Shown here: positions 13,144-30,326 of the stretch, one piece after another
Layout: each line of letters starts with the position of its first letter
How positions within the stretch are numbered: position 1 is the stretch's first letter
Virus record (IMG/VR): IMGVR_UViG_3300024349_000326
Location: 1-64,000 of that record
Reading direction: 5' to 3' (one strand)
Length of the DNA: 64,000 nt
DNA from: a virus
The notes under the pieces: generated by a model
What the model was told of the DNA's origin: nothing
Database searches by the model: none
Seen by the model: only the letters and a program-made list of their open reading frames with translations
Program-made: the position numbers and the translations under genes

Positions 13144-13144
13144 C

Positions 13145-13750: not shown

Positions 13751-13778
13751 CACCTAGCAACAAGAGAGGATAGACACA

Positions 13779-14528
13779 ATGGCCCGTATCGAGCTTAGGG
13801 ACTGCAATGTCATTGTTCAGGACGGCCTGAGCGGCACGGCGGCGGTCAACGAACCCGTCACCCCGCCCGAGGCGACCGACACCAGCTTTGACATCGACAC
13901 CGTTGCGCTGAACGCCGCCGTCACTACCAAGGTGCCCGTAGGGGCGCGTTTCAAGATTGCGGGCGAGACGACCCCGGTGTACCACACCGTCACTGCCCGC
14001 ACCCCGGCTGACGCCGGCCCGACGACCGAAATCACCTTCTCGCCGGCCCTTGGGGCGGGCACCTACGCGGACGGCGCGGTGGTGACGTTCTATCCCCAGA
14101 ATCTCGACATCAAGATCGGGGAAGGGAACATCACCTACACCGAGCACAACGAATACGAATACCTCAAGGACCGAGGCGATTTGGACACGGTGAAGGAAGG
14201 CGACGAAGTGCCGATGGACGTGAAGCTGGAGGCCGTCTTCGAGCACATCACCCAGGGCACCAGCGAGCCGGTCAGCCCGATGGATGCCCTGAAGGGCATC
14301 GGCGGGGCGGCCGAGTGGGTGAGCGCGTCGGCCGACCTGTGCGAGCCGTACTGCGTGGACGTGGTGGTCCTGCACACGCCGCCTTGCGGCACGGCTCAGC
14401 TTGAGCGCGTGACCTTCCCCGACTTCCGCTCGGAAACCCGCGAGATCAACTACAAGGAGTCCACGATCTCGATTACGGGCAAGTGCAAGGCCACCGAACC
14501 CCTCGTCGAGCGCGAGGCGGCGGCGTAG
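13779..14528 (+). CDS. major tail protein (candidate)
   Basis: 249 aa, beta-rich, located upstream of chaperone/TMP; followed by terminator. Confidence 0.5.
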   Translation: MARIELRDCNVIVQDGLSGTAAVNEPVTPPEATDTSFDIDTVALNAAVTTKVPVGARFKIAGETTPVYHTVTARTPADAGPTTEITFSPALGAGTYADGAVVTFYPQNLDIKIGEGNITYTEHNEYEYLKDRGDLDTVKEGDEVPMDVKLEAVFEHITQGTSEPVSPMDALKGIGGAAEWVSASADLCEPYCVDVVVLHTPPCGTAQLERVTFPDFRSETREINYKESTISITGKCKATEPLVEREAAA

Positions 14529-14589
14529 TGACGACTCCCCGGCCCTTGGAGGCCGGTTTCTCTGGCCTCTTTCTCAAGAAGACCAGATA

Positions 14590-14640
14590 TGCGGTGCCGG
14601 CAGCGGTGCCGGCACCGCAACTTTCTCTTTTCTTTCAGCG
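14590..14640 (+). terminator. rho-independent terminator after major tail gene
   Basis: GCGGTGCCGGC-AGCGGT-GCCGGCACCGC stem-loop followed by AACTTTCTCTTTTCTTTC. Confidence 0.6.
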
Positions 14641-14651
14641 AGGGAACAAAC

Positions 14652-15179
14652 ATGAAGATTGCCGGTGTTGACCCCAAATCGCTCTCCAACGAAGTGCTCT
14701 TGGTCCTGCCGCGCGGCGAGACTGAGATCATCTTCCGCGCCAAGGGCCTCCCCGACATGGCCGAGTTCGAGGCCCTGTGTCCGAATCCCAAGCCGCCGGG
14801 CAAGTTCACCAAGGATGGCTGGATTCCCAACCTCAACGATCCCACTTACCAGCAAGTCCTCAGCGAGTGGGCCAAGAAGCGGCTGGGCTATCTGGTCGTC
14901 AAGTCCCTCGGTCCCACCGAGATCGAGTGGGATACGGTCAAGGAGAGCGACCCCCGCACCTGGGCCAAGTGGGAGGAAGACCTGAAGAGCGCCGGGTTGA
15001 CCCAGGTGGAGTGCAATCGCGTGCTGGGCTTGGTCTTGGAAGCCAACGCCCTGGATGACGCCAAGCTGCAACGGGCGCGCGAGGTTTTTCTGCGTGGTCA
15101 GGGACCAATGCCCGAAGAATTCTCTTCGCCCCTTTCCGAACCGCCGAGTTCGCCGTCTGGCGGGCGTGCGAACGGCTAG
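14652..15179 (+). CDS. tail assembly chaperone (G-like)
   Basis: 175 aa from MKIAGVD with GAGGGA SD; located directly before TMP region; -1 frame stays open 15059-15355. Confidence 0.5.
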   Translation: MKIAGVDPKSLSNEVLLVLPRGETEIIFRAKGLPDMAEFEALCPNPKPPGKFTKDGWIPNLNDPTYQQVLSEWAKKRLGYLVVKSLGPTEIEWDTVKESDPRTWAKWEEDLKSAGLTQVECNRVLGLVLEANALDDAKLQRAREVFLRGQGPMPEEFSSPLSEPPSSPSGGRANG

Positions 15180-15355
15180 GGGTCCGGCCGCCGGGCGTCA
15201 AGCCGACTTGGGACGAGTGCGGTGTTGAGACCCAGGCTTTGATCGTCGCCTTCGACCAGATGCGAAGTTACGACGAAGCCGAGCGGGAGGCTCAACTGGC
15301 TGGGGCAAGGACGCCCTTCGCGGCACCCCGTCCGGCGAAAGGGGAAGGTTCCTGA
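15059..15355 (+). CDS. -1 frame extension of tail chaperone (GT-like frameshift product, T segment)
   Basis: Frame -1 relative to 14652 ORF is open from 15059 to TGA 15353-15355 with protein-like sequence (AEFAVWRACERLGVRPPGVKPTWDECGVETQALIVAFDQMRSYDEAEREAQLAG) and no internal start; ends 3 nt before next gene; candidate slip site GGTTTTTC 15083-15090 (non-canonical). Confidence 0.45.
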   Translation, partial: RQAATGARGFSAWSGTNARRILFAPFRTAEFAVWRACERLGVRPPGVKPTWDECGVETQALIVAFDQMRSYDEAEREAQLAGARTPFAAPRPAKGEGS

Positions 15356-15357
15356 CC

Positions 15358-15876
15358 ATGAAGTTCAAGGCCCAGTTCTCCATTCCGCGCATCGACGTGG
15401 CGGCCTATCGCAACGCCCTGGACTCTCACATGAAGGCCGCGATTGCCCAGGCCCTTATGGAATGGCTGGAGGCGGTCTTGGCGGAGATTCCGGTGTGGAG
15501 CGGGGCATCGCGGGCGACGTTCGTGAAGCTGGCCCAGCAGATCGGCTACGGGCTGCCCGTCGCACCGGCGGCGACTGCGACCGGCGAGCGGATCGACCGG
15601 ACCTGGATGGGGACGGCCCAAAGCGACGGCAAGCTGACGGCGGACAAGGAGACGGGCGAGTACACCTTCACATACAGCACGACGCTGCCGTGGCTGATCT
15701 GGAACGAGTATCACAACGCCAACGTCGAGCCGGACCCGACCCTTTTCTATCGTCTGATCGAGCCAGGCCCCTACAACTTCCAGGTTGCGGGTGCCAGGGC
15801 CTTTTTGCGGTTTGCGGAGAACGTGGATCTTCCCAAGGTCAAGCCTCACATGCGCGTGGTGCAAGTGAAGTCCTAG
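15358..15876 (+). CDS. hypothetical tail protein
   Basis: 172 aa ORF between chaperone and TMP. Confidence 0.5.
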   Translation: MKFKAQFSIPRIDVAAYRNALDSHMKAAIAQALMEWLEAVLAEIPVWSGASRATFVKLAQQIGYGLPVAPAATATGERIDRTWMGTAQSDGKLTADKETGEYTFTYSTTLPWLIWNEYHNANVEPDPTLFYRLIEPGPYNFQVAGARAFLRFAENVDLPKVKPHMRVVQVKS

Positions 15877-15888
15877 CATGGTGCCTCA

Positions 15889-18800
15889 ATGGCCGACGAA
15901 ACCATTGTCAATAAACTCGGCTTCAGCGTCGAAGACGCCTTGCAGGCGCTTCAGCGATTGGACTCCGCGCTGCAGTCCTCGGGCACCGCCTTCCAGACGT
16001 TCGGCGCGAAGATTAACGCCTGGAATAGCCAGTCGGAAGCCGCGCTCACGCGGATGAAGGACATGGCCTCGGCTGCCGCGCGGCTGGCCAACTCGATGGC
16101 GAAGATGGGCACCGGGCCGGCAACGCCGGCTGCTGCCGCTTCTGCTGCGCCCGCCTCGAACCTCTGGCTGCCGCCCGGCGTGGCCGAGGAAGCGCAAAAG
16201 GCCAATCAGACCATGACGAATCTCGGCAACGCGGCGGCCAATGCCGGGAATCAGATGAGAGAGGCTGGACAGAAGGGGGCAAAGGCCGGGAAGGACGCCG
16301 GGGATGCTGCGAAGAGCGCCGGTGAGAAGACCAAGGCGTGGACCGTCACCTGGGAGACCCTGACGCGGGTGGTAATGACCCAGGCCATCGTCCGCGCCTT
16401 GAGCCAAATCCGTGATCTTTTGCGGGAGGCGGTGGACCAGGCGCTACGGTTCTCCACCCAAATCTCGGAAATCCAGACCATCGCCCCGAGGATCGACCGC
16501 AACTTCCAAGGGCTGAGCAAGGAAGTCGCCAACCTCTCCAAGCAGTTCAACTTCCCGCTGCCCGACGTGGCCGAGGCGGTGTACCAGACGATCTCCGACC
16601 AGTTCACCACGGCGGCCGAGCGCGCGGACATTCTGACGGCTGCCGCCAAACTCGCCAAGGTTGGCGTGATGGACTTGAACGAGGCCGCGCAACTCTTGAC
16701 GGGTACTCTCAACGCCTACGGCATGGCGTCCGACCAGGCCGAGACGGTGGCGGCCAAGTTCTTCAGGACCGTTGAGTTGGGCCGGATGCGTGGAGCCGAG
16801 TTGACCCCGGTGATCGGCCGCATCATCCCGATTGCCAATGAGTTGGGCGTCAGCCTGGATGAAGTCAACTCCTCGATGGTCGCCTTGACCATCGGCTCGA
16901 TGCGCGTCAATGAGGCGGCGACCGGCTTCCGGGCGGCGATGTCGGCTCTTATCAAGCCGTCCGAACAGATGCAGAAGGAGTTGGCCGCGCTGGGCTACGC
17001 CACACCGCAACTGGCGGTCAAAGCCGAGGGACTTCAAGGCATCTTCCTCAAGCTGGCTGGCAGCACGGACGAGAACGTGGCAGCGATGGCCAAGCTGTTT
17101 CTCAACATCCGTGGCTTGAACGCCGAGGCACGTTTGACCGGCGAGGGTGCGGAGAAAGTCGCCGAAGCCATGAAGGCAATGAGCGACATCAATCTCACCG
17201 ACAACTTCAACGAGATATTCAAGGAGTTCACCTCCACCGACGCCCAGCAGTACATGGCGGAGTTGAACAGGTTTAAGACGACGCTGGCGACCGAAGTGGG
17301 GCCGGAATTGGTCAAATTCCTCAAGCACCTGCTCGATGCGGCGGGCGGGGCGGACGGGCTGGCCTCGGCGCTGAAGAGTATCGCCACCACGTTGACGAGC
17401 CTGGCCGAATTGCTCGCCCCGGTGGCCGGGTTGATGGCGATGTTCTCGCTTCGTGGCAAGCTGGCGGGCATGACCGGATTCAAGGGCGCGATCCTCAACA
17501 ATGTCGTTGCGCCGCTGACGATGGCATCGTGGGCTGCGGACTTCCTGGACGCGCAGATGGCGTCGATGCTCGATAACGCCAATGCGAAGTTCCGCAAGGA
17601 CGTGGCGGAGATCGTGGCCAGCCAAAAGAAGGCGGCCCAGGAGCGGCTGGACGCCGAGATGAAGGTCTATGACGAAGCCGGCCGCCGCTTGGCGCAGTAC
17701 ACGGCCGAGGTCCGCCGGGAGTACAACGCCCAAGTGGACCATGTGCGGAAGGCCAACGAGGAGTTGGTTGTGTCGGCGCGGACCACGATGCAGTCGATGA
17801 TTACGGCCCGGGAAAAGGTCGTGCAGCAATTGCGCGCGGCCGCGCAGGACGCCAACAAGGCGGCCGAAGACTCCATGAAGCGCCAGGCCGAGTCGCAGGC
17901 CAAATTGGACGACCTGCTCTTCAAGCGGCGGCTCGAAGAGCGTCAAAAATACGACGACTATTACAAAAAGCCCGAAGTCACGTCGGATATGTACGGCCGG
18001 CGTGCGCTCGAATTGGCGCAGCAAGCGGCGGGCCTTTTGGCCAAGGCCGAGACCCCGGATCAGGAGCGGACGGCCCAGGCGATCTTCCAGCGGGCGGCAG
18101 CCTACGCCCAGGAAGCCGAGCAGATCGCCAAGGGGACCGAGAACGAGTGGCTGCGGAAGCGTGCCGCCGACACGGTGGAGGACATCATCCGCAAGCAGAT
18201 CGCCGCCGAAAAGGAGCTTCAGGCTAACAGCGCCACGCGGGCCTCGGCGGCTGCCCGAGCGGCGGCTCAAGAGCAAGAGCGCGTGAACCGGATGAAGGTC
18301 TTGATGAAGGGAATCCTCACGGACCTTGATCTGTTCGACAAGAAAGGTCCGGTGGACCCCAAGAAGACGGCAGAGATGTCGGCCGACTTGAAGAGCAAGA
18401 TGGATGCCTTCAAGAAGGAATGGATGGAGGGCACGGCCGATCTCAGTCTGGACGAGGCGTTGAAGCTCGACGCCTTGCAGCAGCGGGTCAAGACGGCCTT
18501 GGAGGGCGGCGTCTCGGAGGCGGAGGTCCAGAAGCTCTTTGCCGCCCCGGACACGATTGACCAATTCCGCGCCCAGATCGAGGCGGGACTGAACAAGAAG
18601 GCGATGGAGGTCTCGGTCCTGTTGCCGGTGGCCTCGCCCGACCTTGCCAAGAAGCTGTTGGCCGAGATGCCCTTACCCGACCGGGACAAGTACCTCCAAC
18701 AACAGAATAGTGCCTACGAGAAACAACTGGAACTGGTCAAGAAGCTCGCCAGCGAACAGCAGAGTTTGACTGCCGCCACGACCAATCAGAAAGCGGCCGT

Positions 18801-19707
18801 GGGATCGCTCGGGGCGAACCTGCATATCTACGAGCAGGGCATGGAGCGTTGGGGCACCTTCTTGAGTCAAGCTGCGGCCAAGGCGAAAGGCGCGATCCTC
18901 GGCGGCGGGGACATTCAGAAGGAAACGAAGGCCCTGGCCGCCATGATTCAGCAATTTCAGCAGTTGTCCAAAACGGGCGGCCAGGATTTCGGGTTGAAGG
19001 AGTATGAGGAATTGCAGAAGAACGCCACGGCGTTGATGGCCAGCCCCACCATCACGGACTGGGACCGCAGTTTCCTCACCAACCAGATGGCCAACTTGAA
19101 GGTCTTGGCCGAACAGACCGAAGCGCTCAAGAAGTTGCAGACGCCGCAAGGTCAGCCCCGCGACGTGGAAGGCGAGTTGCTCAAGGCCCGACAGGAGGCA
19201 GAACGCCTCAAGGAAATGATCGACAAGCTGAGGCCCCAGGCCGCGACTGAAATGGGGCAGGGCGCGCAGGCGGCCCAAAACGCCCTGAGCGCGATTCCGA
19301 GCATGGCGGGCCTGGCCGGCGACATCCAAGAGGCGGCCACGGCCATGTGGGACTTGGCGGTGGCCTCGTGGAGCGTCCAGTCTCCGCCGCCCGTCACCGC
19401 CGCCAAGGGCCGGACGATTTGGAACTTCCTGGCCTTCGGCGGCCCGGCCCAGGGCACGGACGTGATTCCGGCGATGCTCTCGCCGGGCGAGGTGGTGATT
19501 AACGCCGCCTCGTCGCGGCGGTTCGCCGCGCAACTGACCGCCATCAATGCCGGCGTCCAGCCGGTGTACCGCAGCGAAGGCGGCAGCGTCACCAACATCG
19601 GTGACATCAACGTGAACGTAACCGGCGGCGGAACTGGCCGCCAGACGGCTAGGGAAATCGCTGCCGAGATTCGACGCGAGTTGCGGCGCGGCACGGCGAC
19701 CCTGTAA
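15889..19707 (+). CDS. tail tape measure protein
   Basis: 1272 aa, helical/Ala-rich; TP901-type TMP core-like segment (QTIAPRIDRNFQGLSKEVANLSKQFNFPLPDVAEAVYQTISDQF...LNAYGM); C-terminal IPAMLSPGEVVINAASS motif. Confidence 0.9.
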   Translation: MADETIVNKLGFSVEDALQALQRLDSALQSSGTAFQTFGAKINAWNSQSEAALTRMKDMASAAARLANSMAKMGTGPATPAAAASAAPASNLWLPPGVAEEAQKANQTMTNLGNAAANAGNQMREAGQKGAKAGKDAGDAAKSAGEKTKAWTVTWETLTRVVMTQAIVRALSQIRDLLREAVDQALRFSTQISEIQTIAPRIDRNFQGLSKEVANLSKQFNFPLPDVAEAVYQTISDQFTTAAERADILTAAAKLAKVGVMDLNEAAQLLTGTLNAYGMASDQAETVAAKFFRTVELGRMRGAELTPVIGRIIPIANELGVSLDEVNSSMVALTIGSMRVNEAATGFRAAMSALIKPSEQMQKELAALGYATPQLAVKAEGLQGIFLKLAGSTDENVAAMAKLFLNIRGLNAEARLTGEGAEKVAEAMKAMSDINLTDNFNEIFKEFTSTDAQQYMAELNRFKTTLATEVGPELVKFLKHLLDAAGGADGLASALKSIATTLTSLAELLAPVAGLMAMFSLRGKLAGMTGFKGAILNNVVAPLTMASWAADFLDAQMASMLDNANAKFRKDVAEIVASQKKAAQERLDAEMKVYDEAGRRLAQYTAEVRREYNAQVDHVRKANEELVVSARTTMQSMITAREKVVQQLRAAAQDANKAAEDSMKRQAESQAKLDDLLFKRRLEERQKYDDYYKKPEVTSDMYGRRALELAQQAAGLLAKAETPDQERTAQAIFQRAAAYAQEAEQIAKGTENEWLRKRAADTVEDIIRKQIAAEKELQANSATRASAAARAAAQEQERVNRMKVLMKGILTDLDLFDKKGPVDPKKTAEMSADLKSKMDAFKKEWMEGTADLSLDEALKLDALQQRVKTALEGGVSEAEVQKLFAAPDTIDQFRAQIEAGLNKKAMEVSVLLPVASPDLAKKLLAEMPLPDRDKYLQQQNSAYEKQLELVKKLASEQQSLTAATTNQKAAVGSLGANLHIYEQGMERWGTFLSQAAAKAKGAILGGGDIQKETKALAAMIQQFQQLSKTGGQDFGLKEYEELQKNATALMASPTITDWDRSFLTNQMANLKVLAEQTEALKKLQTPQGQPRDVEGELLKARQEAERLKEMIDKLRPQAATEMGQGAQAAQNALSAIPSMAGLAGDIQEAATAMWDLAVASWSVQSPPPVTAAKGRTIWNFLAFGGPAQGTDVIPAMLSPGEVVINAASSRRFAAQLTAINAGVQPVYRSEGGSVTNIGDINVNVTGGGTGRQTAREIAAEIRRELRRGTATL

Positions 19708-19735
19708 CCCCTTTTGTAAGACGAGAGGAAAACCC

Positions 19736-20344
19736 ATGAGCGTCAGTCGAATGAGTGTTGGGCAGAACGCGGGTTGCAGCATGGTCCGCGCCCGCAGGGC
19801 CGAAGACCAACTTCAACCGCGCGGGCGGTTCGTGGTCGAGCACTTCCGCAAGGGAGTGAAGATCGGCCAGTACGAGTTCAACAACGGCATCACCAACGAG
19901 GGCAAGAACAAGCTCTTGGACGTGATGTTCCACGGCGTCTCGGCCATCACGACCTGGTGGCTGGGGCTGATCGACAACAGCGGCTATAGCGCGCTGGCCG
20001 CTGGGGACACCTACGCCAACATCAACCAGGCGGGCAACGGCTGGGACGAGTTCACCGACTACACGGACCCGGCCAACGCCGGCAGCGCCAGCACCCGCCC
20101 CGAATGGACCGAAGGCGCGGCCTCCGGGCAGGCCATTACCAACGGCAGCCCGGTGGTCTTCGACATCACCAGTAGCGGCACCGTCAAGGGCCTGTTCCTG
20201 GTGGGCGGGGCTGCCAACGCCCAGAACAAGGGCGACTACCAAGCGGCTGGGGCCGTGCTGTGGGCCACCGCCCTGTTCGGCACGGGCGACGTGCCGGTCA
20301 ACGCCGAGGACCAGTTGAAGGTGACGTACACCGTCAGTGCGTAA
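19736..20344 (+). CDS. hypothetical tail protein (distal tail candidate)
   Basis: SD GAGAGGAAAA; 202 aa; followed by hairpin GCGGGGTC-GCTTTTG-GACCCCGC plus T-rich tract. Confidence 0.5.
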   Translation: MSVSRMSVGQNAGCSMVRARRAEDQLQPRGRFVVEHFRKGVKIGQYEFNNGITNEGKNKLLDVMFHGVSAITTWWLGLIDNSGYSALAAGDTYANINQAGNGWDEFTDYTDPANAGSASTRPEWTEGAASGQAITNGSPVVFDITSSGTVKGLFLVGGAANAQNKGDYQAAGAVLWATALFGTGDVPVNAEDQLKVTYTVSA

Positions 20345-20425
20345 GAGGAGACTCCCTCGCCACGGGTCGGGCGGGGTCGCTTTTGACCCCGCTCGGCCCT
20401 TCTTTCTCCCTTTTGAGGAATCACG

Positions 20426-21403
20426 ATGGCCTACGAACGATTTGCAAACGGCGGCCTCTCCTCGCTGGATGCCGCCATCGACAACGACGATCTCGCCTTG
20501 ACCGTGAAGTCGGCTGTCGGATTCCCCACCGGCGGCAACTTTCGCATCATCATCGACAACGAGATCATGCTGGTCACGGACGTACAGGGCAAGACCTTCA
20601 CGATTACGCGGGCACAAGAGGGGACCAGCGCCGCCAGCCACGATGCGGATGCGGCGGTCTTCCATATTCTCACGGCCGGTGCCTTGGCTCAGCGGGACAT
20701 TGAGCAGTTTGCCGCCGGCGCGATCGCCAACCGCGATGTGGCCGGGCAGGCAGGCCGGCTCTATTTGCCGACCGAGGGCTATATCGCCCGCGACAACGGC
20801 CTCGAATGGGAGCGGATGCCCTTCTGGCGCTTTACCCCGCCGAACGCCGGAGACTTCACTTGGGTCAACCAGGGCAGTGCCACGGTGACGGATCGCAAAG
20901 GGATGATGGTCCTGGAGACGCCGAGCGTGGCATCGGGCGAGAATCTGCGGTGCCAGGTCAAGTCCGCGCCGGCGACCCCTTACACGATTACCGTCGCCTT
21001 GCTGGCTCACGGCCCCATCTACACGACTGGCTATACGCTTCCGCACTACGGCATTTGCTTGCGCGAGAGCGGCTCGGGCAAGTTGCTGGTCTACGGCTTC
21101 GGCTATAACAGCTATCCGTTTCGCTTTCAGTACGCGCAGATGACGAACCCCACGACGATTGCCACCGGCTCCATCGTGGACACAACGGTGGCCCGGCACT
21201 GGCCACAGTGGCTCCGCGTCAGTGACGATGGCACTTACCGGAGGGTTTACGTCTCCGGGGATGGTGTCAAGTGGAATCTCGCGGTGTCTGCCGAGTCCCG
21301 CACGGCGTTTCTCACGGCTGACCAGGTGGGCGTGTTCGCCAACAGTTGGAAAAACACCTACGTGCCGCGCGTCATTTCTTTCTTGCATTGGAGCGAATCC
21401 TAA
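20426..21403 (+). CDS. tail fibre / receptor-binding-like protein, paralog 1
   Basis: 325 aa; shares conserved N-terminal ~100 aa and WVNQGSAT core with the next two genes. Confidence 0.55.
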   Translation: MAYERFANGGLSSLDAAIDNDDLALTVKSAVGFPTGGNFRIIIDNEIMLVTDVQGKTFTITRAQEGTSAASHDADAAVFHILTAGALAQRDIEQFAAGAIANRDVAGQAGRLYLPTEGYIARDNGLEWERMPFWRFTPPNAGDFTWVNQGSATVTDRKGMMVLETPSVASGENLRCQVKSAPATPYTITVALLAHGPIYTTGYTLPHYGICLRESGSGKLLVYGFGYNSYPFRFQYAQMTNPTTIATGSIVDTTVARHWPQWLRVSDDGTYRRVYVSGDGVKWNLAVSAESRTAFLTADQVGVFANSWKNTYVPRVISFLHWSES

Positions 21404-22386
21404 TGGCTGAGCAATTCAAGAACCTCGCCAGCACGACTCTCAACGGCGCGATCGACGATTCCACCACCACGATTACCGTCGCCAGCGCGATGGGCTTCAC
21501 GGGCGGCGATTTCCGTATCCTCGTGGACAGCGAGATTATGAAGGTCACGGCCGTGAGTGGCTCGGACCTGACGGTTGCGCGGGGCGCGGAGGGGACGAGT
21601 CCCACTGCCCACGACAACGGTGCTACCGTTCGTCACGTCCTGACGGTCGGCGCGCTCGACGCCCACGACCAGAATGATCTTGTGGTCCGGGACGCCTACG
21701 CCAGCAAACCCGCTGCCGGCGTGCCAGGGCGCATCTTCTTGCCGAGCGATGGCATCTTCTTCGAGCGCGACAACGGCTCGGCGTGGGAGAAGTTCGGCCC
21801 GATCTGGCCGATGACCCCGCCCCAAGCCTCGGATTTTCCGACCTGGGTGAATCAGGGTTCGGCGACCATCACGGACAACAGAGGGGCGATCTGGTTTGAG
21901 TCGCCGTCCGTGAGCGGCACCAACTACCGGCTGCGGGTGAAAGCCTATCCCAGCCCGCCGTTCACGGTGGAAATGGCGTTCATGTGTCTCATCACCCCGA
22001 ACACGAGCAGCTATCCCGGTGCCGGACTCATCATCCGCGATGACGTGTCGGGCAAGTTGCAGCACTATGGGGTCTACGACACGAGTGGCAAGATCGGGGG
22101 CATCAATCGTCCCAGTCCCACCGGCAGTGCCAGCGCCATCACGGGTTGGCCTGGGTCGGGGCAACTCGACCAGACGGAATCGGGTCTGTTGTGGGTCAAG
22201 TACGAGGACGACAACACGAACCGCAAGATTTCGATTTCCACGGACGGTTACTCGTGGGTGCAGATGGTCAGCCTCTCCCGAACCGACTACCTGACGCCGA
22301 CGCAAATCGGAATATATCTGCACGCGCCTCAGACCACCCCTGAGAGCAACCAGGGGGCAACTTTCTTTCATTGGAAGCAAAGCTAA
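21403..22386 (+). CDS. tail fibre / receptor-binding-like protein, paralog 2
   Basis: TAATG junction with paralog 1; same N-terminal motif (GDFRILVDSEIMKVTAVSGSDLTVARGAEGTSPTAH); divergent central/C-terminal part. Confidence 0.55.
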   Translation: MAEQFKNLASTTLNGAIDDSTTTITVASAMGFTGGDFRILVDSEIMKVTAVSGSDLTVARGAEGTSPTAHDNGATVRHVLTVGALDAHDQNDLVVRDAYASKPAAGVPGRIFLPSDGIFFERDNGSAWEKFGPIWPMTPPQASDFPTWVNQGSATITDNRGAIWFESPSVSGTNYRLRVKAYPSPPFTVEMAFMCLITPNTSSYPGAGLIIRDDVSGKLQHYGVYDTSGKIGGINRPSPTGSASAITGWPGSGQLDQTESGLLWVKYEDDNTNRKISISTDGYSWVQMVSLSRTDYLTPTQIGIYLHAPQTTPESNQGATFFHWKQS

Positions 22387-23366
22387 TGGAAACCTTCGCC
22401 AATCAAGCCGTTACCACGCTCTCGGCCGCGATCAGCAGCGTGACCGCCACGAGTTGCACGGTCGTTGACGCCACGGCGTTCCCGGCGACGGGGAACTTCC
22501 GCATCAAGATCGACAGCGAAATCCTCATCGTCACGGCCCGCGCGGGCAATACCTTTACCGTGACGCGCGGGGCCGAGGGGACCACGGCGGCCACGCACGC
22601 CAGCGGTGCGAACGTCATTCATCTGCTGACGAAGGGCGGTCTGGAGGCGAGGGTCGCCAATCGCTTCATCTCGGACATCTACGACAACAAGCCGGCTGCC
22701 GGCGTCAAGGGACGCCTTTTCCTTCCTACGGACGGGTTGTTCCTGGAATACGACGATGGGGCGGCGTGGCACAAGTACGGGCCGTACCGGCGGCTCAAAG
22801 CGCCGCCGGAGATCGGTTGGTCCTGGGTGAACCAGGGCAATGCCACGGCGACGTACATTGACGGCCGGATTGTCCTGGAAGACCCTGATCTCGATGCCGC
22901 CGATCCCCAGCTTCGCCTTTACGTCCGACCCGCTCCGCAATGGCCGGCAACACTGACGATGGCGTATCTCTTCAACGGGATTGGCGGAGACACGCCGCGT
23001 ATGGGCTTCTGCATCCGCCAACACAGCCCCGGCATCAGCTATGACGGTTACATCGGCGCGTGCGGCATGTTCTTAGGCGGTACGCAGTGGCAGTCGTATG
23101 GTCAGTGGCTCACCTCTCCAACGAGCACGAGTTCGAGCTGGAGTTGGGACGACTACTTCCCTGCCCAACGGCTCATTTGGACGCGCTTCGAGATTTACGG
23201 CGACAGAAAGCGCTTCTATCTCTCGGCGGACGGCGTGAATTTCATCAAGGTGAAGGACGACAGCATGGGCAGCTATGCCATGCCTAACCAGGTCGGCATC
23301 TTCATCGACCCGCAGGACAACAATCAGCCTGTCTCTCTGTCTCTGGTCCATTGGGAAGAGAGCTAA
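22386..23366 (+). CDS. tail fibre / receptor-binding-like protein, paralog 3
   Basis: TAATG junction; motif GNFRIKIDSEILIVTARAGNTFTVTRGAEGTTAATH; C-terminus LVHWEES parallels FLHWSES / FFHWKQS. Confidence 0.55.
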   Translation: METFANQAVTTLSAAISSVTATSCTVVDATAFPATGNFRIKIDSEILIVTARAGNTFTVTRGAEGTTAATHASGANVIHLLTKGGLEARVANRFISDIYDNKPAAGVKGRLFLPTDGLFLEYDDGAAWHKYGPYRRLKAPPEIGWSWVNQGNATATYIDGRIVLEDPDLDAADPQLRLYVRPAPQWPATLTMAYLFNGIGGDTPRMGFCIRQHSPGISYDGYIGACGMFLGGTQWQSYGQWLTSPTSTSSSWSWDDYFPAQRLIWTRFEIYGDRKRFYLSADGVNFIKVKDDSMGSYAMPNQVGIFIDPQDNNQPVSLSLVHWEES

Positions 23367-23369
23367 GCG

Positions 23370-25931
23370 ATGGCTCAGACCGGCAAGCTAGGCACCGCCG
23401 ATTCCCGACTGGCGAACGTGCAACTGGCGTTTGCCGCTGCCGAGCCATTGCCGCCCTCGGTCACGACGGGGAGCGGCCGGCTCGGCGGGCAGTTGGGAGA
23501 CACGGTTCTCGCCCTCGGCGGGGTGATTGGCGCGAGCGTCATTCACCTTGCAGCCGAGAGCGTGCTTGCGGCTGCGCATACGGCGGCCGGCGAGGGCGTG
23601 TTCGCGCCTCATGCGTCTCCGCTTTGGGCCTTGGGTGGTCAAGACTCTCAACTGGGCGACACCGAACTGGCCTTCTCCGGTGCGGACGCCGCGCTGCCGA
23701 CGATTACTTCCCAGAGCGGCCGGCTTGGCGGGCGATTGGGCGATCTGGTCCCCGGTCTCGGCGGGCTGGTCGGCGCGGGCGTCATTCATCTGTCCGCTGA
23801 AAGCGTGCTGGCGATCGCGCAGACGGCGGACTCTGCCCCCACGTTCGCGCCCCACGCCTCGCCTCTTTGGGCCTTGGGCGGTCAAGACTCCCAACTGGGC
23901 GATACCGAACTGGCTTTTGCCGGTGCCGAGGAGGCGCGGCCGGAGACTGGCGACCGCACCGGGCAGCTTGGCACCCTCAATTCTCTCTTGGGTAACATGC
24001 GGCCCGCCCTGGGCGAAGAAGAGGGCGGCGGCGGGGCCAACATCGTCTATGCCGATGCCGAGAGCCACTTGGCGGTGTCGGCCGAGGCGGCTACGAGCGT
24101 CGTGCGGACGTGTGCCGCCTCCAGCGCACTGGTCCTGTCGGACGCCGCTGGACGCAACAATCTCCTGAGCGGGGCCGCCGAATCGGCGGTCAGCCTGGAC
24201 ACGGCGGCAGCCTTTACGGTGGCGCGGGCGGCGGCGGCCGAGAGCACGCTGGCCCTGGCAGATGTGGCCGGGCGCAACAATCTGCTCAGCGGTGCGGCCG
24301 AGTCTCCGATCAGCCTGGATGTAGCGGCTGGATTCACGGCCGCATGGGCGGTGGCGGGCGAAAGCACGCTTGTCCTGACGGATGCGGCGGCCAATATCGG
24401 CGGTCAGCTTATCGAGGCGGCGGCAGAGTCTACGCTGGTCCTGGACGTGATGGCCGACTTCACGGTCGCGCGGGCGGCGGCGGCCGAGAGCGCACTGGCC
24501 TTGGCCGACGCAGCCGGCCGCAACAATCTGCTCAGCGTCGGCGCTGAGTCCGCGATCAGCCCGGACACGGCGGCGGAGTTCGCGGTGGCACGGGCGGCAG
24601 CAGCGGAAAGCGCGTTGGCCTTGGCTGATGCGGCGGGCCGTAACAACTTGCTTAGCGCCAGCGCCGAGTCGGCACTCAGTTTGACCGTCGAAGCGGCCCG
24701 CGTCTTGCCGGCCGTTATCGAGGTGGCGGCCGAATCCGCGCTCAGCTTGACCGGGGCCGCCGGGCGAAATAACATCGTCGCTGCCGCAGCCACAAGCACC
24801 TTGGACCTGACCAGTGCGGCGACGTGCATTCATGTTGTCCCCACCTTGGTCAGCGCCGAGTCGGCGGTCAGCCTGGACACGGCGGCGGCTGGCTTGGTCG
24901 TGCGGACAGGATGGGCTTGGGACGATCTTTGGGACTTGTGGCACGAGGCGTCCGTCGTCGTCGTTCGGAAACTGGCCGCTGAAAGCCCCCTCACGCTGGC
25001 CCAGTCGGAAGTGACCGCGCGGCCGTGGTACTTGTCGGTCGAGACCCCCGTTCAGACCATCACGGAGGAATACGATCCGCAAGTTGACGAAATGGTCACG
25101 CGGATCGAGGGTCTGCAAGACGCCGCCAGCATGGCCCGGCCGCTGCCGATGGTGGTCCACCAGCCGATCCCGCTCGGGCAGACGGCCTCGGTCGTCAAGG
25201 TCAAGCCCACGGCCATCAACGTCTCGGCCGAGAGCGTCCTGGAACTGCTGGGCGAAGTCCGACCGAACCAGACCGGCGACGTGGGACACTGGCTGGCGTT
25301 CACGCAGACGGCCACGGTCGATAAGTGCAAGCCGGCCAGGTCCACCTTGGAGTTGGCGGCCGAGGCGGCGACGGTTTGGACCGGCCCGCGCGATGCGGAC
25401 TCGGCGCTCAACCTCCGCCAGTCGGCGACGTACTATCTGGTCTCGGCCGGCATCCTTCAGCGGTATCATCCGTTTGTCGGGGCTGGGGCACCGGGCGCGC
25501 CGACGCCCCCGCCGCTTGTACTTGAGGGTCCGCGCCCCGGCGTCACGGTCACGTTCCAGTTGGTCTATCCGGCGACCGGCACCGTCACCGATTCGGTGAC
25601 ATTCCGAGCGCCCAACTTCGGCAACAAGGATAGGCTCGGCTTCAACCGCGTCCTGCGCGAGACTCGCGGCGGCACACTGATCGTCTTTGCCGATCCGATG
25701 TGGCCGAAGATTCAGACCCTCGTGCTCAATTTCTCCGGCCTCACGAGCGACCAAGCCCAGCAGTTGCTTGCGTTCCTGGACGCCCACCTCGGCGAAGAGG
25801 TCGGCGTGTACGACTGGGAGCATCGCTACTGGACCGGCGTGATTACCACGCCGACCGACCCGGTGGTCCAGGACGGCAAGGACCGTTTCTCGGCGAGCTT
25901 CGAGTTCGAGGGTGAGTTGGTGCCGGCTTAG
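23370..25931 (+). CDS. repeat-rich tail fibre-like protein (853 aa)
   Basis: Two ~81-aa N-terminal repeats, then about seven 40-aa Ala-rich repeats (AAESxLxLxDAAGRNNLLSGAAESAVSLDTAAAF), and a distinct C-terminal domain. Confidence 0.6.
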   Translation: MAQTGKLGTADSRLANVQLAFAAAEPLPPSVTTGSGRLGGQLGDTVLALGGVIGASVIHLAAESVLAAAHTAAGEGVFAPHASPLWALGGQDSQLGDTELAFSGADAALPTITSQSGRLGGRLGDLVPGLGGLVGAGVIHLSAESVLAIAQTADSAPTFAPHASPLWALGGQDSQLGDTELAFAGAEEARPETGDRTGQLGTLNSLLGNMRPALGEEEGGGGANIVYADAESHLAVSAEAATSVVRTCAASSALVLSDAAGRNNLLSGAAESAVSLDTAAAFTVARAAAAESTLALADVAGRNNLLSGAAESPISLDVAAGFTAAWAVAGESTLVLTDAAANIGGQLIEAAAESTLVLDVMADFTVARAAAAESALALADAAGRNNLLSVGAESAISPDTAAEFAVARAAAAESALALADAAGRNNLLSASAESALSLTVEAARVLPAVIEVAAESALSLTGAAGRNNIVAAAATSTLDLTSAATCIHVVPTLVSAESAVSLDTAAAGLVVRTGWAWDDLWDLWHEASVVVVRKLAAESPLTLAQSEVTARPWYLSVETPVQTITEEYDPQVDEMVTRIEGLQDAASMARPLPMVVHQPIPLGQTASVVKVKPTAINVSAESVLELLGEVRPNQTGDVGHWLAFTQTATVDKCKPARSTLELAAEAATVWTGPRDADSALNLRQSATYYLVSAGILQRYHPFVGAGAPGAPTPPPLVLEGPRPGVTVTFQLVYPATGTVTDSVTFRAPNFGNKDRLGFNRVLRETRGGTLIVFADPMWPKIQTLVLNFSGLTSDQAQQLLAFLDAHLGEEVGVYDWEHRYWTGVITTPTDPVVQDGKDRFSASFEFEGELVPA
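23472..23957 (+). repeat. tandem ~243-bp duplication inside fibre gene
   Basis: Two adjacent, roughly 85 % identical units (SGRLGGQLGDTV... / SGRLGGRLGDLV...); boundaries approximate. Confidence 0.7.
24060..24900 (+). repeat. about 7 tandem 120-bp coding repeats inside fibre gene
   Basis: Recurrent GCCGGGCGCAACAATCTGCTCAGCGG... units encoding AAGRNNLLSGAAES; boundaries approximate. Confidence 0.65.
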
Positions 25932-25963
25932 CGCCGGTTTGGTGCCCGGCGAGGAGAGACCCC

Positions 25964-26362
25964 ATGTTCACGCTTGCAGCCCCGTACCCGCTCTTGCAGA
26001 CGACCACACTCCTGCCTAACCCAGAATTCAGCGATCAGGAGGGCTTGACGGCGACCGTGACCCGCAAGCTGGCAATGGATGGGACGCGCTACACCTACGT
26101 CAAGCGCAAGGGCGACCGCCGGAAGCTGAAGTGGACCTTCCGGCTGATGCGCAACAAGGCCCTGGAACTGCGGGCCTTCCTCTTCGCCTACTTCGCCTCG
26201 CCGGTACGGATCGCTGACCACAACGGGCGGGTCTGGGTCGGCAATTTCACGAACAATCCATTCGAGTTCGACACGCCGCAGAAGGCTGGGCCAGCAATCG
26301 GGCCGATGCCGCGTGGTGAGGCCCAGATGATCGAGTTGGAATTCGAGGGAGTCGAGCAGTGA
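25964..26362 (+). CDS. hypothetical tail protein
   Basis: 132 aa; stop overlaps start of next gene (ATGA at 26359). Confidence 0.5.
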   Translation: MFTLAAPYPLLQTTTLLPNPEFSDQEGLTATVTRKLAMDGTRYTYVKRKGDRRKLKWTFRLMRNKALELRAFLFAYFASPVRIADHNGRVWVGNFTNNPFEFDTPQKAGPAIGPMPRGEAQMIELEFEGVEQ

Positions 26363-29253
26363 GAAACATATCCCCGGCCGGATTGGCGAAACTGGCGAAC
26401 CGTTACGGCAATGAACCCATCACCATCATCGAGGTGGACTGGGTGAACGGGACCACCGCGCGCTATGCCGACCGAACGGTGGGGACAATTCCGGGCCGCA
26501 TCGTCGAGGTCGGCGATCTGGATAACGTCGTCAACGTGAGCAACAGCAGCGGGTCGCAGTCGCTTGCCGTCACGCTCGACGACACGGACGGCTCAATCAA
26601 GGCCATCATGGACGCTCACGACGTTCATAAGCGGACCTGCCGGGTCTATCAGTATTTCATGGGTCTCGATCTCGCCGACAAGTTCCTGCTCTTCAGCGGC
26701 AGGGTTAGTTCGCCGATCAGTTGGAGCGAGCGGGACCGCACGGTAAAGTTCACCATCCTCTCGCAACTGGAAGACAAGGAGATCGGCTTTTCCGCCGAGG
26801 AGGGCCAGTTCCCCTACCTGCCGGCCGACATGGTGGGCAAGGCGTGGCCGATGATCTTCGGCAAGGTGGTCAATTGCCCGACGCTTCAGGTCAACAAAGC
26901 GGTCACGGGCACGACGCTTACCGGCGTCGGCATCCTCAGTGGCATGGACCTGTGGGCCTCTTTGTCGGATGGTGCCGACGACTCGCAATTCACCATGAGC
27001 CTCATGCAGATGGTGATTGAGCGAAATCACTACTCGGAAGTAAAGGATTGTTGGGCACCGGCCTTCCATCCGCCAGTGGACGCCCAGAAGGCGGCGGAGC
27101 TTCAGCAGCGCGTTGACTCGCTGAACGAGCAGATCAACGATGCCGTGGCCCGCCGCAGCAAGCAGCGGGCGTGTGCCCAGGCCCGCCGGCAGCAGCAGAT
27201 CGACGAGGCCAACGCCCAGGGTTTGGGCGAGAATCCCATCCACATCCTCGGCGGCGAGGATTTTCCCCAGGGGCGGACTTTGACCGTCAATATCAACGGC
27301 GGTCTGTTCACCGGGCACTTCGAGGGCGAGTTGTTTCACGTCCAGAGCCGCCAGCATCCGGCGGACGCTGCCACGGCCGCTGACGCCTACGCCGAGAAGA
27401 CCGAGGAGCCGGCCGTCTGTCTGGAGCCGACGCAGACCCGCTACTATCGGTACGAGGATGAAATCCCTCCGGGCTGCGGCGCGCGGCCGTCTTGGCAGAA
27501 GACGATCATTCACTACGGGTGGGTGAGCACGACAAGCCAGGCCACTACGCACCAGATGGACACCGAGCCGGTGGCCCAGCACTTTTGGGTCGATCCCGGC
27601 GCGTCGGTGAAGATCGCCAGCGACGAGCCGATTACCTACATCGTCTCCATCGTGCCCGGCACGGTCTTGGCGGTGAAAGCCTACAAGCAACTCACCGGCG
27701 AGCGGCGGCTGGTGGACGTGCCGACCGACCTGTACACGGTCACGACGCAGACCTATGGGTCCGTGACGGCCGTGCAGATCGTCGTCAACAAGCCGCTCTC
27801 TTCCATCACGGACCAGGGCTGGAGCGACGATCTCTACGTGACTTTCCAGTCAAGCGTTGGCCCGGACACCGTGAACATCCTCAAGTACCTGATCGCCAAC
27901 TACACCGATCTGACCTGGGATGCCACGTCGTTCAATCACGTCCAGCAGAAGCTCCAGCCGTTTCCGGCCAACTTCCCGATCCTGGACCGGAAGAACACCA
28001 TCGACGTATTGCAGGAGATCGCCTTCCAGGCCCGTTGTGCCATTTGGCTCAGCAACGGGGTCTTCTACTTGAAATACCTGCCCGAGGAGCCGATGCCGGC
28101 CGGCACGATCACCGTGAGCGACATCGACGCCGAGAAGGGGATCGAGGTCGAACTGACCAGCACGGAAGACATCGTGACCAAGATGAAGGTCAACTGGCGG
28201 CTGAGTTGGGCGGACGTTTCGGACCAGCCGAAGGACAAGGCCGAGAGGACGATCCTCTTGCGGCACAACGTTGCCAAGTACGGCACCCAGGAGCAGGAAT
28301 ACGACTGGTACATCTACAACCAGCCGGACATCGCCTATAAGTGTGCGACATTCTGGCTGATCCGCAAGTCGAACACCTGGAAGCGGATCAAGTTCAAGAC
28401 CTTCTTGAATAAGCTGAACCTGGAAACCTTCGACGCCGTGGCGCTGGACTTCGACCGGTCTTACGTGGCGAACGGGCCGGTTCTGGCTATCGTCGAAAAG
28501 GCCAACTACAACTCGGCGGAGAATTGCGTGGACTTTGAGTGCCTGGTGCCGGTGGCGGCGGGCACGATGGCGCAGTACCACTTCTTCTGGCCGGCGGCAC
28601 TGCCGCAGACGGACACCTGGCCGCCTGCCAACGAGGTCGAAGCCGGCTGCGCCGGTGGCGACGGGATCGGCACGGGAGCCACGGGCAACTTGCCGGTGGG
28701 CGACACCACGACCATCCCGGATGGTAGCGTGGTCTTCGTCGGCGGCCCGAACGTCGTCTTCCGGGCGCACAGCGATTGGGGCGACAGCACGCCGACCGAC
28801 GTGGGCTTCACGGCCCAGCCGGTCGTGGACACGGCCACCTACATCAACCTCTCGCCCGGCTCGAAGCCGCGACTCAATCTGCGGACGTATCCCCGGCGGA
28901 GCCTGCCGGCCATCACGCCAGCCTCCTCGGCGGCCAGCGCGACTACCGTCGATATTCACCAGACCAAGATTCTCGATACGTCAGGCAGTGAAACCAAGGT
29001 CGCTTATCTATCGTCGATCCTCCACGGCATCAATGAGAACGGCAGCTTAACCATCGACCGTGGGGCACTGGTGGCGGACGACACGCATGAGGATGGACAG
29101 CCGTTGTCCGACGTGCTGAAGAACGGCGACGACTACCTAGCCATCCGCACGGACGTTTCCATCTGGGATGCCGATGATGGGGAGCACGAGTTCCACTTTG
29201 AGTATGACGACGAAATCGGGATGTTCGGCGCAGGGACGGCGTTCCTGCGGTAG
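26359..29253 (+). CDS. large tail tip / central fibre protein (964 aa)
   Basis: Size and position as last tail gene; beta-rich; N-terminal region resembles tail-tip/host-specificity type proteins (ITIIEVDW...); followed by terminator. Confidence 0.55.
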   Translation: MRNISPAGLAKLANRYGNEPITIIEVDWVNGTTARYADRTVGTIPGRIVEVGDLDNVVNVSNSSGSQSLAVTLDDTDGSIKAIMDAHDVHKRTCRVYQYFMGLDLADKFLLFSGRVSSPISWSERDRTVKFTILSQLEDKEIGFSAEEGQFPYLPADMVGKAWPMIFGKVVNCPTLQVNKAVTGTTLTGVGILSGMDLWASLSDGADDSQFTMSLMQMVIERNHYSEVKDCWAPAFHPPVDAQKAAELQQRVDSLNEQINDAVARRSKQRACAQARRQQQIDEANAQGLGENPIHILGGEDFPQGRTLTVNINGGLFTGHFEGELFHVQSRQHPADAATAADAYAEKTEEPAVCLEPTQTRYYRYEDEIPPGCGARPSWQKTIIHYGWVSTTSQATTHQMDTEPVAQHFWVDPGASVKIASDEPITYIVSIVPGTVLAVKAYKQLTGERRLVDVPTDLYTVTTQTYGSVTAVQIVVNKPLSSITDQGWSDDLYVTFQSSVGPDTVNILKYLIANYTDLTWDATSFNHVQQKLQPFPANFPILDRKNTIDVLQEIAFQARCAIWLSNGVFYLKYLPEEPMPAGTITVSDIDAEKGIEVELTSTEDIVTKMKVNWRLSWADVSDQPKDKAERTILLRHNVAKYGTQEQEYDWYIYNQPDIAYKCATFWLIRKSNTWKRIKFKTFLNKLNLETFDAVALDFDRSYVANGPVLAIVEKANYNSAENCVDFECLVPVAAGTMAQYHFFWPAALPQTDTWPPANEVEAGCAGGDGIGTGATGNLPVGDTTTIPDGSVVFVGGPNVVFRAHSDWGDSTPTDVGFTAQPVVDTATYINLSPGSKPRLNLRTYPRRSLPAITPASSAASATTVDIHQTKILDTSGSETKVAYLSSILHGINENGSLTIDRGALVADDTHEDGQPLSDVLKNGDDYLAIRTDVSIWDADDGEHEFHFEYDDEIGMFGAGTAFLR

Positions 29254-29295
29254 CGGCAAGTAGACGTTCAAGGTAAGTGCGGCAAGTGCGTTTGG

Positions 29296-29327
29296 ACAAA
29301 ATGCCCAGGTGGACAACCACCTGGGCA
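29296..29327 (+). terminator. intrinsic terminator at end of structural module
   Basis: AAATGCCCAGGTGG-ACAA-CCACCTGGGCATTT perfect 14-bp stem, followed by GTCTTTCTG. Confidence 0.6.
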
Positions 29328-29352
29328 TTTGTCTTTCTGAGAGGAGCATCTT

Positions 29353-29928
29353 ATGGAAAGCGCGTTTGCTTGGCTGAATCAGTTATTCCAGGCCATTTTT
29401 CAGTTCTTTCCTCGCATCCTCATCGTGCGTGCGACTCATGGCGGCGTCAAATGGGTCAAGGGGAAGCACGTCAAGCTGCTCGTGCCAGGGCTGCATATCT
29501 ATTGGCCGCTGGTAACGGACGTGGAAGTGGTCGTGACCGCGCGCCAGACGCTTGCCGTCCCGGACCAAGTGATGGCCACCAAGGACGGCAAGAAGGTGGT
29601 GGTCAAGACTCTGGTGGTCTACAAGATTCCCGATCCCGTGCGGGCCATCGGCAAGATGAACTGGGACGTGGACACCACCATCAACGACCTGACGCAATCC
29701 GCCGTGGTCCGCGTGATTGCCACGCACACCTACGACGAGATCATGGCGGGAATCAGGGACGAGAGCCTGACGAAGACCTTGACCAGAGAGGTCCGCCGCG
29801 AGTTGCGGCAGTTTGGCGTCCATATCGCCCGCTGCAAGCTGGTGGACTTCTCTGACTGCAAGGTCTACAAGCTGCTCACCAGCCAGGCGGATCGCCAGGG
29901 CATGGCTACGCACCAGTTCTATCAATAA
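29353..29928 (+). CDS. SPFH / band-7 (prohibitin-HflC-like) domain protein
   Basis: N-terminal hydrophobic segment then VKWVKGKHVKLLVPGLHIYWPL...VVYKIPDPVRAI...TTINDLTQSAVVRVIATHTYDEIM pattern typical of SPFH domains; isolated after terminator and convergent with leftward block. Confidence 0.6.
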   Translation: MESAFAWLNQLFQAIFQFFPRILIVRATHGGVKWVKGKHVKLLVPGLHIYWPLVTDVEVVVTARQTLAVPDQVMATKDGKKVVVKTLVVYKIPDPVRAIGKMNWDVDTTINDLTQSAVVRVIATHTYDEIMAGIRDESLTKTLTREVRRELRQFGVHIARCKLVDFSDCKVYKLLTSQADRQGMATHQFYQ

Positions 29929-29931
29929 GCG

Positions 29932-30321
29932 TCAAGACTGGCGTGCCGGGCAGTTCTGGCACTGGTCCAGTGTGACTTCGCAGCCGAAGTGCTCGGCCTC
30001 CGGGTTGCCGCAGATGCCCGCGATGTTCAGCGCGCCGTCAAGCACTTGGACTTGGAGCATCCGCAGTGTGCAGAGCGGCCACGCTGGATAGAGGCGCGAG
30101 CCTTCTTGCCGGAAGCCGGAGAGAGTCGGCGGAGGTCCGGGGAATTGCAGGGAGCCGTCCGGGTGAATCGTGGGCCGTCCTTGAGTCATTTCCACGTCGG
30201 GAATCGCCTGCTCCAGGAGGCGATAAAAGCTCGCGGGCGAGCCACCGGAATAGACAAGGTAGTTGCAGCTTCCCGAGGGTGTCGGGCGGCGGGGTTGGTC
30301 GTTGGGGCAATCGCATGGCAT
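29932..30321 (-). CDS. Cys-rich hypothetical protein
   Basis: 129 aa; MPCDCPND... and C-terminal GICGNPEAEHFGCEVTLDQCQNC. Confidence 0.4.
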   Translation of the reverse strand: MPCDCPNDQPRRPTPSGSCNYLVYSGGSPASFYRLLEQAIPDVEMTQGRPTIHPDGSLQFPGPPPTLSGFRQEGSRLYPAWPLCTLRMLQVQVLDGALNIAGICGNPEAEHFGCEVTLDQCQNCPARQS

Positions 30322-30326
30322 GGGTT

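Follow-up and report, generated by a model that had tools for sequence, protein, structure and literature searches.

Three tandem paralogous genes in a virus genome fragment (IMG/VR record IMGVR_UViG_3300024349_000326, positions 1 to 64,000; this 64,000-nucleotide stretch is the window referred to throughout) likely encode tail-fiber or adhesin subunits that act as an obligate three-member set. The genes, here termed copy 1 (c1), copy 2 (c2), and copy 3 (c3), are inherited as one ordered trio or as two consecutive trios, and this fixed set of three (or two sets) suggests joint action rather than a stock of interchangeable spares. Modular tail fibers with a lectin-like head and tandem copies are already a well-known kind. 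What is new is the very large unannotated protein family to which the three products belong, its occurrence in phages with Planctomycetota as hosts, and a strictly conserved, apparently translationally linked cassette of three paralogs that forms one evolutionary unit.

All three genes are on the + strand, exactly where a first-pass annotation (made by a model from the nucleotide sequence) had placed three open reading frames (ORFs) of about 325 amino acids (aa): c1 at 20426–21403 (325 aa), c2 at 21403–22386 (327 aa, counted from the ATG at 21403), and c3 at 22386–23366 (326 aa, counted from the ATG at 22386). The products of c2 and c3 are 43% and 40% identical to that of c1, and the c3 product is identical to a protein (P0001) on JGI metagenome contig Ga0310073_1182841 (82 kb), the source of the window, which derives from an uncultivated phage. 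The shared elements quoted in the annotation are all present, namely the N-terminal motif GFP..GNFRI.ID.EIM.VT..G.TFTVTRGAEGT.A..H, the WVNQGSAT core (WVNQG[SN]AT across the three copies), and the C-terminal ends FLHWSES (c1), FFHWKQS (c2), and LVHWEES (c3), which follow the pattern HW.[EQ]S. Segment hidden Markov models (HMMs) divide each gene into an N-terminal beta domain, a neck, and a lectin-like head (c1: ~20429–20713, 20717–20845, and 20849–21400; c2: 21403–21681, 21691–21825, and 21829–22383; c3: 22386–22670, 22671–22808, and 22815–23363), and an HMM search of the window for further N-domain, neck, or head modules matched only these three genes.

The three copies correspond to three ancient orthologous groups. 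The best 120 database homologs showed 57%–94% identity to their own copy versus 31%–46% to the other two; c1 orthologs were 59%–94% identical, and the identity of c2 orthologs was 58%–76% in the protein search and reached 95% in IMG/VR loci. In a neighbor-joining tree of 143 family members, in which the deep branches were short and unresolved, c1, c2, and c3 were each monophyletic (36–37 sequences each) and jointly formed one clade. Every complete locus of this clade (i.e., not cut by a contig end; ~30 in total) found by scanning genomes, IMG/VR, and metagenomes was arranged either as c1-c2-c3 or as c1-c2-c3-c1'-c2'-c3', with constant order. These comprised ~24 distinct three-gene loci from genomes and IMG/VR, a further four from metagenomes, and five distinct six-gene loci (plus two partial ones). 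They have diverged to roughly 52% identity, without the loss or gain of a single member. In six-gene loci, first-cassette (A) copies group together, as do second-cassette (B) copies, indicating that the six-gene form arose once, and no fewer than three sublineages (75%–83% identical) have kept all six genes. A metagenome scan aimed at exceptions to the c1-c2-c3 rule found none. It did reveal one oddity, an insertion sequence: in one metagenome contig (L198:412-2799), c1 and c2 are separated by an inserted gene for an IS110-like transposase (438 aa), together with a 241-aa ORF, the sole broken c1/c2 overlap seen. The one other disruption seen is in a Planctomycetaceae metagenome-assembled genome (MAG; L009:10001-12944, on a 1.07-Mb contig), where c1 and c3 carry frameshifts, which could be due to prophage decay or assembly errors.

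The first-pass annotation called for pairwise comparison of the three genes (40%–43% identity) and for ratios of nonsynonymous to synonymous substitution (dN/dS); the latter establish that all three are real coding genes under purifying selection. Values of dN/dS were 0.06–0.30 across the three genes (c1, 0.10–0.30), with weaker constraint on the head than on the N domain and neck. Within orthologous groups, identity was 74%–82% for the N domain, 72%–88% for the neck, and 56%–63% for the head; between paralogs, the corresponding values were ~50%, 37%–49%, and 26%–33%. The cassette is also typically 20–25 identity points more diverged, relative to the window, than the flanking genes for proteins of 202, 132, and 964 aa. 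Such faster divergence is as expected for proteins that contact the host, of which it is the usual signature.

Homology of the N-terminal domain ties the cassette to known tail fibers. In the AlphaFold2 model of c1 (a single chain, built from a 71-sequence alignment; mean predicted local distance difference test [pLDDT] score of 83), a small beta domain occupies residues ~10–81 (pLDDT 91–95). A family profile searched against the PDB with hmmsearch matched 8jov, "Putative tail fiber protein," with residues 3–88 aligned to 4–99 (E = 1.4e-6; 18 chains in the entry). Foldseek with a separate model of residues 1–105 returned a sole strong match, 8jov_1, "Portal-tail complex of phage GP4" (E = 4e-5, TM 0.69/0.64, 31% identity), with tailspikes 4y9v, 9k4a, and 4ru5 matching less strongly through their N-terminal domains. 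The domain also matches the PHROG tail-fiber families 8469, 38058, 11439, and 9851, and a ~97-residue N module heads BFVD models of annotated tail fibers (root mean square deviation of 2.0–2.5 Å), including fibers with S74 chaperone domains. From this homology we infer that the three products are carried on the virion, where the N-terminal beta domain would plug the fiber into the tail tip.

At the other end of the c1 model is a beta-sandwich head (residues 141–325, pLDDT mostly >85, about 85–97), which is predicted to adopt the concanavalin-A-like lectin/glucanase fold. The first-pass annotation had guessed at a lectin-like distal domain, and structure prediction for these C-terminal ~185 aa agrees with it. 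The best Foldseek matches were 3o12 (E = 1.6e-9) and 3mep, both structural-genomics proteins whose function is not annotated, followed by a glycoside hydrolase family 43 (GH43) beta-sandwich domain, CBM66 (4b1m), ERGIC-53, VIP36, and legume lectin (E-values of 1e-9 to 1e-5, TM of 0.43–0.73 on the target, and 6%–17% sequence identity). The suggestion that the distal domains are diversified stands for sequence, which diverges faster in the head than in the N domain between paralogs, but not for fold, as all heads share one. Residues conserved in the head across 71 sequences are W146, N148, Q149, R175, C211, R213, D279, Q300, H321, and W322, together with glycines. No invariant or near-invariant glutamate, and hence no GH16-type catalytic pair, was found in the head among the 71 aligned sequences, which favors a binding module over a GH16-type enzyme. 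We predict that the distal head would bind a host surface glycan. The neck and head also occur as a module elsewhere: in Caulobacter phage CcrRogue, they form the C-terminus of a tail protein of 1579 aa; in Mycobacterium phage Redno2, they make up a 268-aa protein that closes the minor-tail cluster; and a 993-aa fiber-like protein carries them at its end. These cases indicate that the usual place of the module is the distal end of tail proteins.

The genomic position of the cassette is consistent with a role in the tail. It follows the tape measure gene and the gene for a 202-aa protein and precedes a block of genes for proteins of 853, 132, and 964 aa. The backbone around this slot (a 249-aa major tail-like gene, two small genes, the tape measure, the 202-aa gene, the slot, an 853-aa-like gene, and the 132-aa and 964-aa genes) is kept in more than 50 loci with varying slot content and reaches far beyond the c1/c2/c3 clade. 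Outside that clade, the slot holds one, two, three, or five tightly packed members of the same family, which arose by independent expansions. For example, L135:7039-11085 carries three tandem paralogs with the same N domain and a different head ("...WDDGAGILG"), followed by a 416-aa protein with parallel beta-helix-like repeats, which are typical of tailspikes. Such variation typifies a receptor-binding cassette slot that draws on a common N-terminal module. The first-pass annotation had proposed multiple receptor-binding proteins from the three genes. The fiber part of that proposal is supported by N-domain homology, predicted fold, and tail-module position, but the genes are not loosely multiplied or interchangeable, being a fixed, ordered three or six in every complete locus.

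Several observations weigh against an obligate set of fiber subunits. The functional steps rest throughout on homology and prediction. The copy-number comparison with related phages, also proposed in the annotation, gave three or six genes within the clade and one, two, three, or five outside it, so that three is not a family-wide rule. In the c1 model, a helix (residues 84–94) is followed by a poorly defined neck that extends to ~140 with low confidence (pLDDT 55–70). No curated Pfam family matched the head above threshold and NCBIfam gave nothing, while PHROG 19068, of which c1, c2, and c3 are members (E = 2.3e-25, 6.8e-24, and 3e-8; profile positions ~28–264/267), is labeled "unknown function." The Pfam family DUF1349 (PF07081) was hit by c2 alone, at 13.6 bits versus a gathering cutoff of 32.4 (E = 0.055), and none of the three proteins is a member. 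For the 202-, 853-, 132-, and 964-aa proteins, searching the PDB, Pfam, PHROGs, and NCBIfam yielded nothing usable, and a site right after the tape measure and before the large tail-tip genes is unusual for fiber-like genes. Finally, an exhaustive representative search found the N-domain motif 13–33 times inside giant proteins (P0121, P0122, and P0136; 1911–7472 aa). The conserved N-terminal ~100 aa, proposed in the annotation as a virion-attachment domain, are thus homologous to the N-terminus of the GP4 fiber but also serve as an internal repeat of up to 33 copies, and the motif may be a general fiber building block rather than a dedicated anchor.

The three genes are joined by TAATG stop-start overlaps at 21401–21405 (c1/c2, a 1-nt overlap) and 22384–22388 (c2/c3). 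Of 42 related loci scored, 40 had a T[AG]ATG overlap between c1 and c2, and every scored locus had one in its c2/c3 junction context. In six-gene loci, the overlaps are kept within cassettes, and the c3/c1' junction is a 12-nt spacer carrying its own GAGG. The word TAATG itself is not enriched in the window (19 found versus 33 expected); unlike this word count, the placement of the overlaps exceeds chance. Translational coupling of c2 to c1 through the overlap is likely. The junctions at 21403 and 22386 are hence as the first-pass annotation described them, whereas a third that it counted in the same consecutive series, at 4426, is unrelated to the cluster and lies 16 kb away near the terminase. 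There, TAATG at 4424–4428 ends an ORF at 4079–4426 (115 aa), and its in-frame ATG opens a 65-codon frame that runs to 4623; the pair lies just 5' of the large terminase gene and possibly represents coupled small genes (perhaps of the small terminase region).

The outer edges of the cassette differ from its internal junctions. The c1 start at 20426 has no TAATG coupling and is preceded by an 81-nt spacer with a strong hairpin, and the c3 stop is followed by the next gene as TAAgcgATG. The hairpin (20364–20409, between the 202-aa gene and c1) consists of a GC-rich, 16-bp stem and a T-rich tract, and a Shine-Dalgarno-like GAGGA (20415–20419) lies 6 nt 5' of the c1 ATG. Within the 17 kb from 13000 to 30500, this hairpin is the best terminator-like site (91-nt fold, ΔG of −46.2 kcal/mol, z = −4.0). 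It is retained in 14 related loci, where six pairs show compensatory changes, and the block GTGAGGAATCACGATG, which covers the GAGGA region, is conserved across the same 14 aligned loci. The hairpin resembles an intrinsic terminator, an attenuator, or an RNA-stability element and delimits the cassette on its upstream side. Further GC-rich, + strand hairpins with T-rich tails are found at 14590–14619, after the putative major tail gene (249 aa), and at 29299–29330, beyond the 964-aa gene that closes the tail module; together, the three may partition the late operon into expression blocks. In the mechanism that we propose, the conserved hairpin would close the upstream expression unit, c1 would be translated from its own GAGGA ribosome-binding site, and c2 and c3 would be translated via re-initiation at the T[AG]ATG overlaps, giving roughly equal amounts of the three proteins. 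The short helix and neck would then mediate oligomerization, and three different lectin heads would be displayed on the virion by an obligate, ordered set that evolves, and on one occasion was duplicated, as a unit.

How the subunits would assemble is addressed mostly by the helix and neck. Each type has a distinct and near-invariant helix: AQRDIEQF in c1 (net charge of −0.8), DAHDQNDL in c2 (−3.75 over 15 residues, strongly acidic), and EARVANRF in c3 (+1.0, basic). In c3, helix and neck are nearly invariant among orthologs, with a neck dN/dS of 0.00–0.07. Of 57 positions in helix and neck, nine are fixed in a paralog-specific manner; the N core has four such positions among 83, and the head has four among 185.

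One real possibility, which we put somewhat below an even chance, is that the genes encode three independent homotrimeric receptor-binding fibers at equivalent or neighboring sites, with three specificities that broaden or secure host recognition. The fixed set would then result from selection for all three specificities or for three distinct docking positions. The homologous GP4 fiber favors this arrangement, being a single protein in 18 chains (i.e., six homotrimers), as do the fibers headed by the same N domain that carry S74 intramolecular-chaperone domains, since S74 chaperone-domain fibers are homotrimers. Conserved, ordered sets of homotrimeric tailspikes are also known, for example, in the Kuttervirus CBA120-like phages. 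Relatives with one, two, three, or five tandem copies from independent expansions are likewise readily accommodated, and the paralog-specific helix and neck residues could equally serve to prevent the mixing of paralogs. Independent fibers are harder to reconcile with ~30 complete loci, down to ~52% identity, that have neither lost nor gained a single member, or with a sole expansion that duplicated the whole cassette and was followed by retention of all six genes. Moreover, the few paralog-specific positions in the N-domain cores (4/83) argue against three distinct docking sites, and the strongly acidic c2 helix would be awkward in a homotrimeric bundle.

A 1:1:1 heterotrimeric fiber of c1, c2, and c3 is a second and slightly less probable arrangement, which we put forward tentatively. 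The distinct helix-neck segments would set a pseudo-threefold stalk with three different lectin heads at its tip, the overlaps would fix stoichiometry, and the cassette would be an indivisible unit of inheritance, which would explain exactly three or six genes. Consistent with this are the strict copy number and fixed order, the retained duplication of the whole cassette, and the contrast between overlaps within cassettes and an independent ribosome-binding site between them. Paralog-specific fixed residues are also concentrated in helix and neck, where each type has its own near-invariant helix (one acidic, one basic, and one mixed). Distant relatives contain natural fusions of two complete units (N-neck-head twice; P0127, P0128, and P0129; 604–618 aa), and there is a precedent in virophage DSLV2 (PMC12724248). 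Against it, the helix charges sum to about −3.6 and are not neutral, such that charge complementarity is suggestive at most. Family members with one, two, or five copies exist, the solved homolog (the GP4 fiber) is a homotrimer, and both this tail module and the distant arrays commonly show stop-start overlaps and tightly packed genes. If true, this arrangement would give phages of Planctomycetota a fiber that reads three glycan features in combination, and it would be among very few heterotrimeric receptor-binding fibers, after that of DSLV2.

It is very improbable that the products are structural or enzymatic tail proteins instead of adhesins, such as a GH16-type glycoside hydrolase digesting host polysaccharide or an inert baseplate block: glucanases share the concanavalin-A-like fold, the model also matches the non-catalytic GH43 beta-sandwich, and a site right after the tape measure is usual for distal-tail and baseplate proteins, but the heads lack an invariant glutamate (71 sequences) and with it a GH16-like catalytic pair, the best single-domain matches are non-catalytic lectins, carbohydrate-binding modules, and uncharacterized proteins, and the cassette has a higher evolutionary rate than the flanking tail genes, unlike core baseplate parts.

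The window is a phage genome sequence. It encodes a large terminase, portal, scaffold, major head protein, and a 1272-aa tape measure protein (PF10145, E = 2e-24), and the tail module is followed by genes for a primase, helicase, polymerase, ligase, methyltransferase, and ParB-like protein. The lack of a sheath gene in the window indicates a siphovirus-like phage. At the DNA level, a megablast search with 15 kb turned up no close cultured relative among 50,697 phage records. Close relatives of the tail region lie in Thermoguttaceae MAGs (inside large contigs and inside two assemblies labeled "chromosome") and also in Planctomycetaceae MAGs, which identifies Planctomycetota as the hosts and at least some of the relatives as prophages. 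How phages recognize Planctomycetota, which have unusual envelopes, is very poorly understood. For a widespread group of Planctomycetota phages and prophages, this cassette is the strongest candidate for the apparatus of host recognition. The protein family is also large (28,526 representative clusters match its profile, with hundreds of full-length members of ~325 aa), and naming the anchor, neck, and lectin head would improve annotation for many metagenomic phages. Further, the strict three-gene unit provides a testable case of a homotrimeric fiber gene turning into a fixed set of paralogs.

Neighboring genes show features of their own. The 202-aa protein (19736–20344) is conserved throughout the phage group and belongs to PHROG 8123 (function unannotated), with a sub-threshold match to the NCBIfam entry "choice-of-anchor S" (E = 0.0012, 18.6 bits versus a cutoff of 70); its position would suit the distal tail protein or a partner on which the fibers dock. 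The 853-aa protein (23370–25931) has a repetitive N-terminal half (a 243-nt unit repeated 1.9 times and 120-nt units repeated twice) with alanine-rich repeats ("AES..L.L.DAAGRNNLLS"). Its homologs in relatives range from 374 to 1024 aa, with the last ~250 aa conserved, and its C-terminal end is weakly similar to the next, 132-aa protein (E = 6e-5 over 37 aa). We considered its "LG...LG" motifs and ~37–40-aa repeats as docking sites tracking the number of fiber genes and rejected this idea, as six-gene loci have fewer motifs than three-gene loci. The tape measure gene (15889–19707) is mosaic. In L004, L073, and L076, it is only 39%–43% identical to that of the window although neighboring tail genes are ~90% identical, which points to replacement through recombination. 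Within the structural module, a GIY-YIG homing endonuclease gene (13112–13750; PHROG 314, E = 2e-35) follows the head-completion genes and precedes the putative major tail gene, and some relatives do not have it there.

Among the closest known systems is that of virophage DSLV2 and related Synechococcus phages, where three consecutive, co-oriented paralogous fiber genes are conserved across the lineage and their products co-purify as a 1:1:1, LPS-binding heterotrimer (PMC12724248). The likeness lies in the three consecutive, co-oriented paralogous genes, which here are c1-c2-c3 in every complete clade locus. The DSLV2 proteins differ in having a T4 gp37-tip-like fold with a PF07484 (phage tail collar) domain, for which c1–c3 gave no Pfam match at E-values up to 1; hosts and viruses are also unrelated. 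The closest solved homolog is the tail fiber of Ralstonia podophage GP4 (8jov, 439 aa), whose N-terminal ~95-residue beta domain is homologous to that of c1–c3. In GP4, this domain is the portion of the fiber that is ordered in the portal-tail complex (18 chains), and its docking partner is said to be the tail body, which has no recognizable counterpart here. GP4 is a podovirus with one fiber gene, the rest of whose product is unrelated to c1–c3, while the phage described here is siphovirus-like, with three genes and a lectin-like distal part.

The neck and head have homologs in the CcrRogue and Redno2 proteins (27%–30% identity over ~200 aa by tblastn), likewise at the distal end of tail clusters. 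Unlike c1–c3, these are single copies whose function is unannotated; they either stand alone, lacking the N domain, or are joined to a very large tail protein. With CBM66, ERGIC-53/VIP36, legume lectins, 3o12, and 3mep, the head shares the predicted beta-sandwich fold at a sequence identity of merely 6%–17%. Phages with multiple receptor-binding proteins are a further point of comparison, such as the CBA120-like phages with four tailspikes and the multi-depolymerase phage K64-1. These sets are encoded by tandem genes and combine related N-terminal particle-binding modules with different distal parts, and the S2-4 protein of K64-1 (9k4a) is a weak fold match to the N domain described here. In those sets, the bodies of the proteins are different enzymatic beta-helices, and a branched complex is built through N-termini that have become differentiated. 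In contrast, c1, c2, and c3 share one architecture and one size, and their N-domain cores barely differ.

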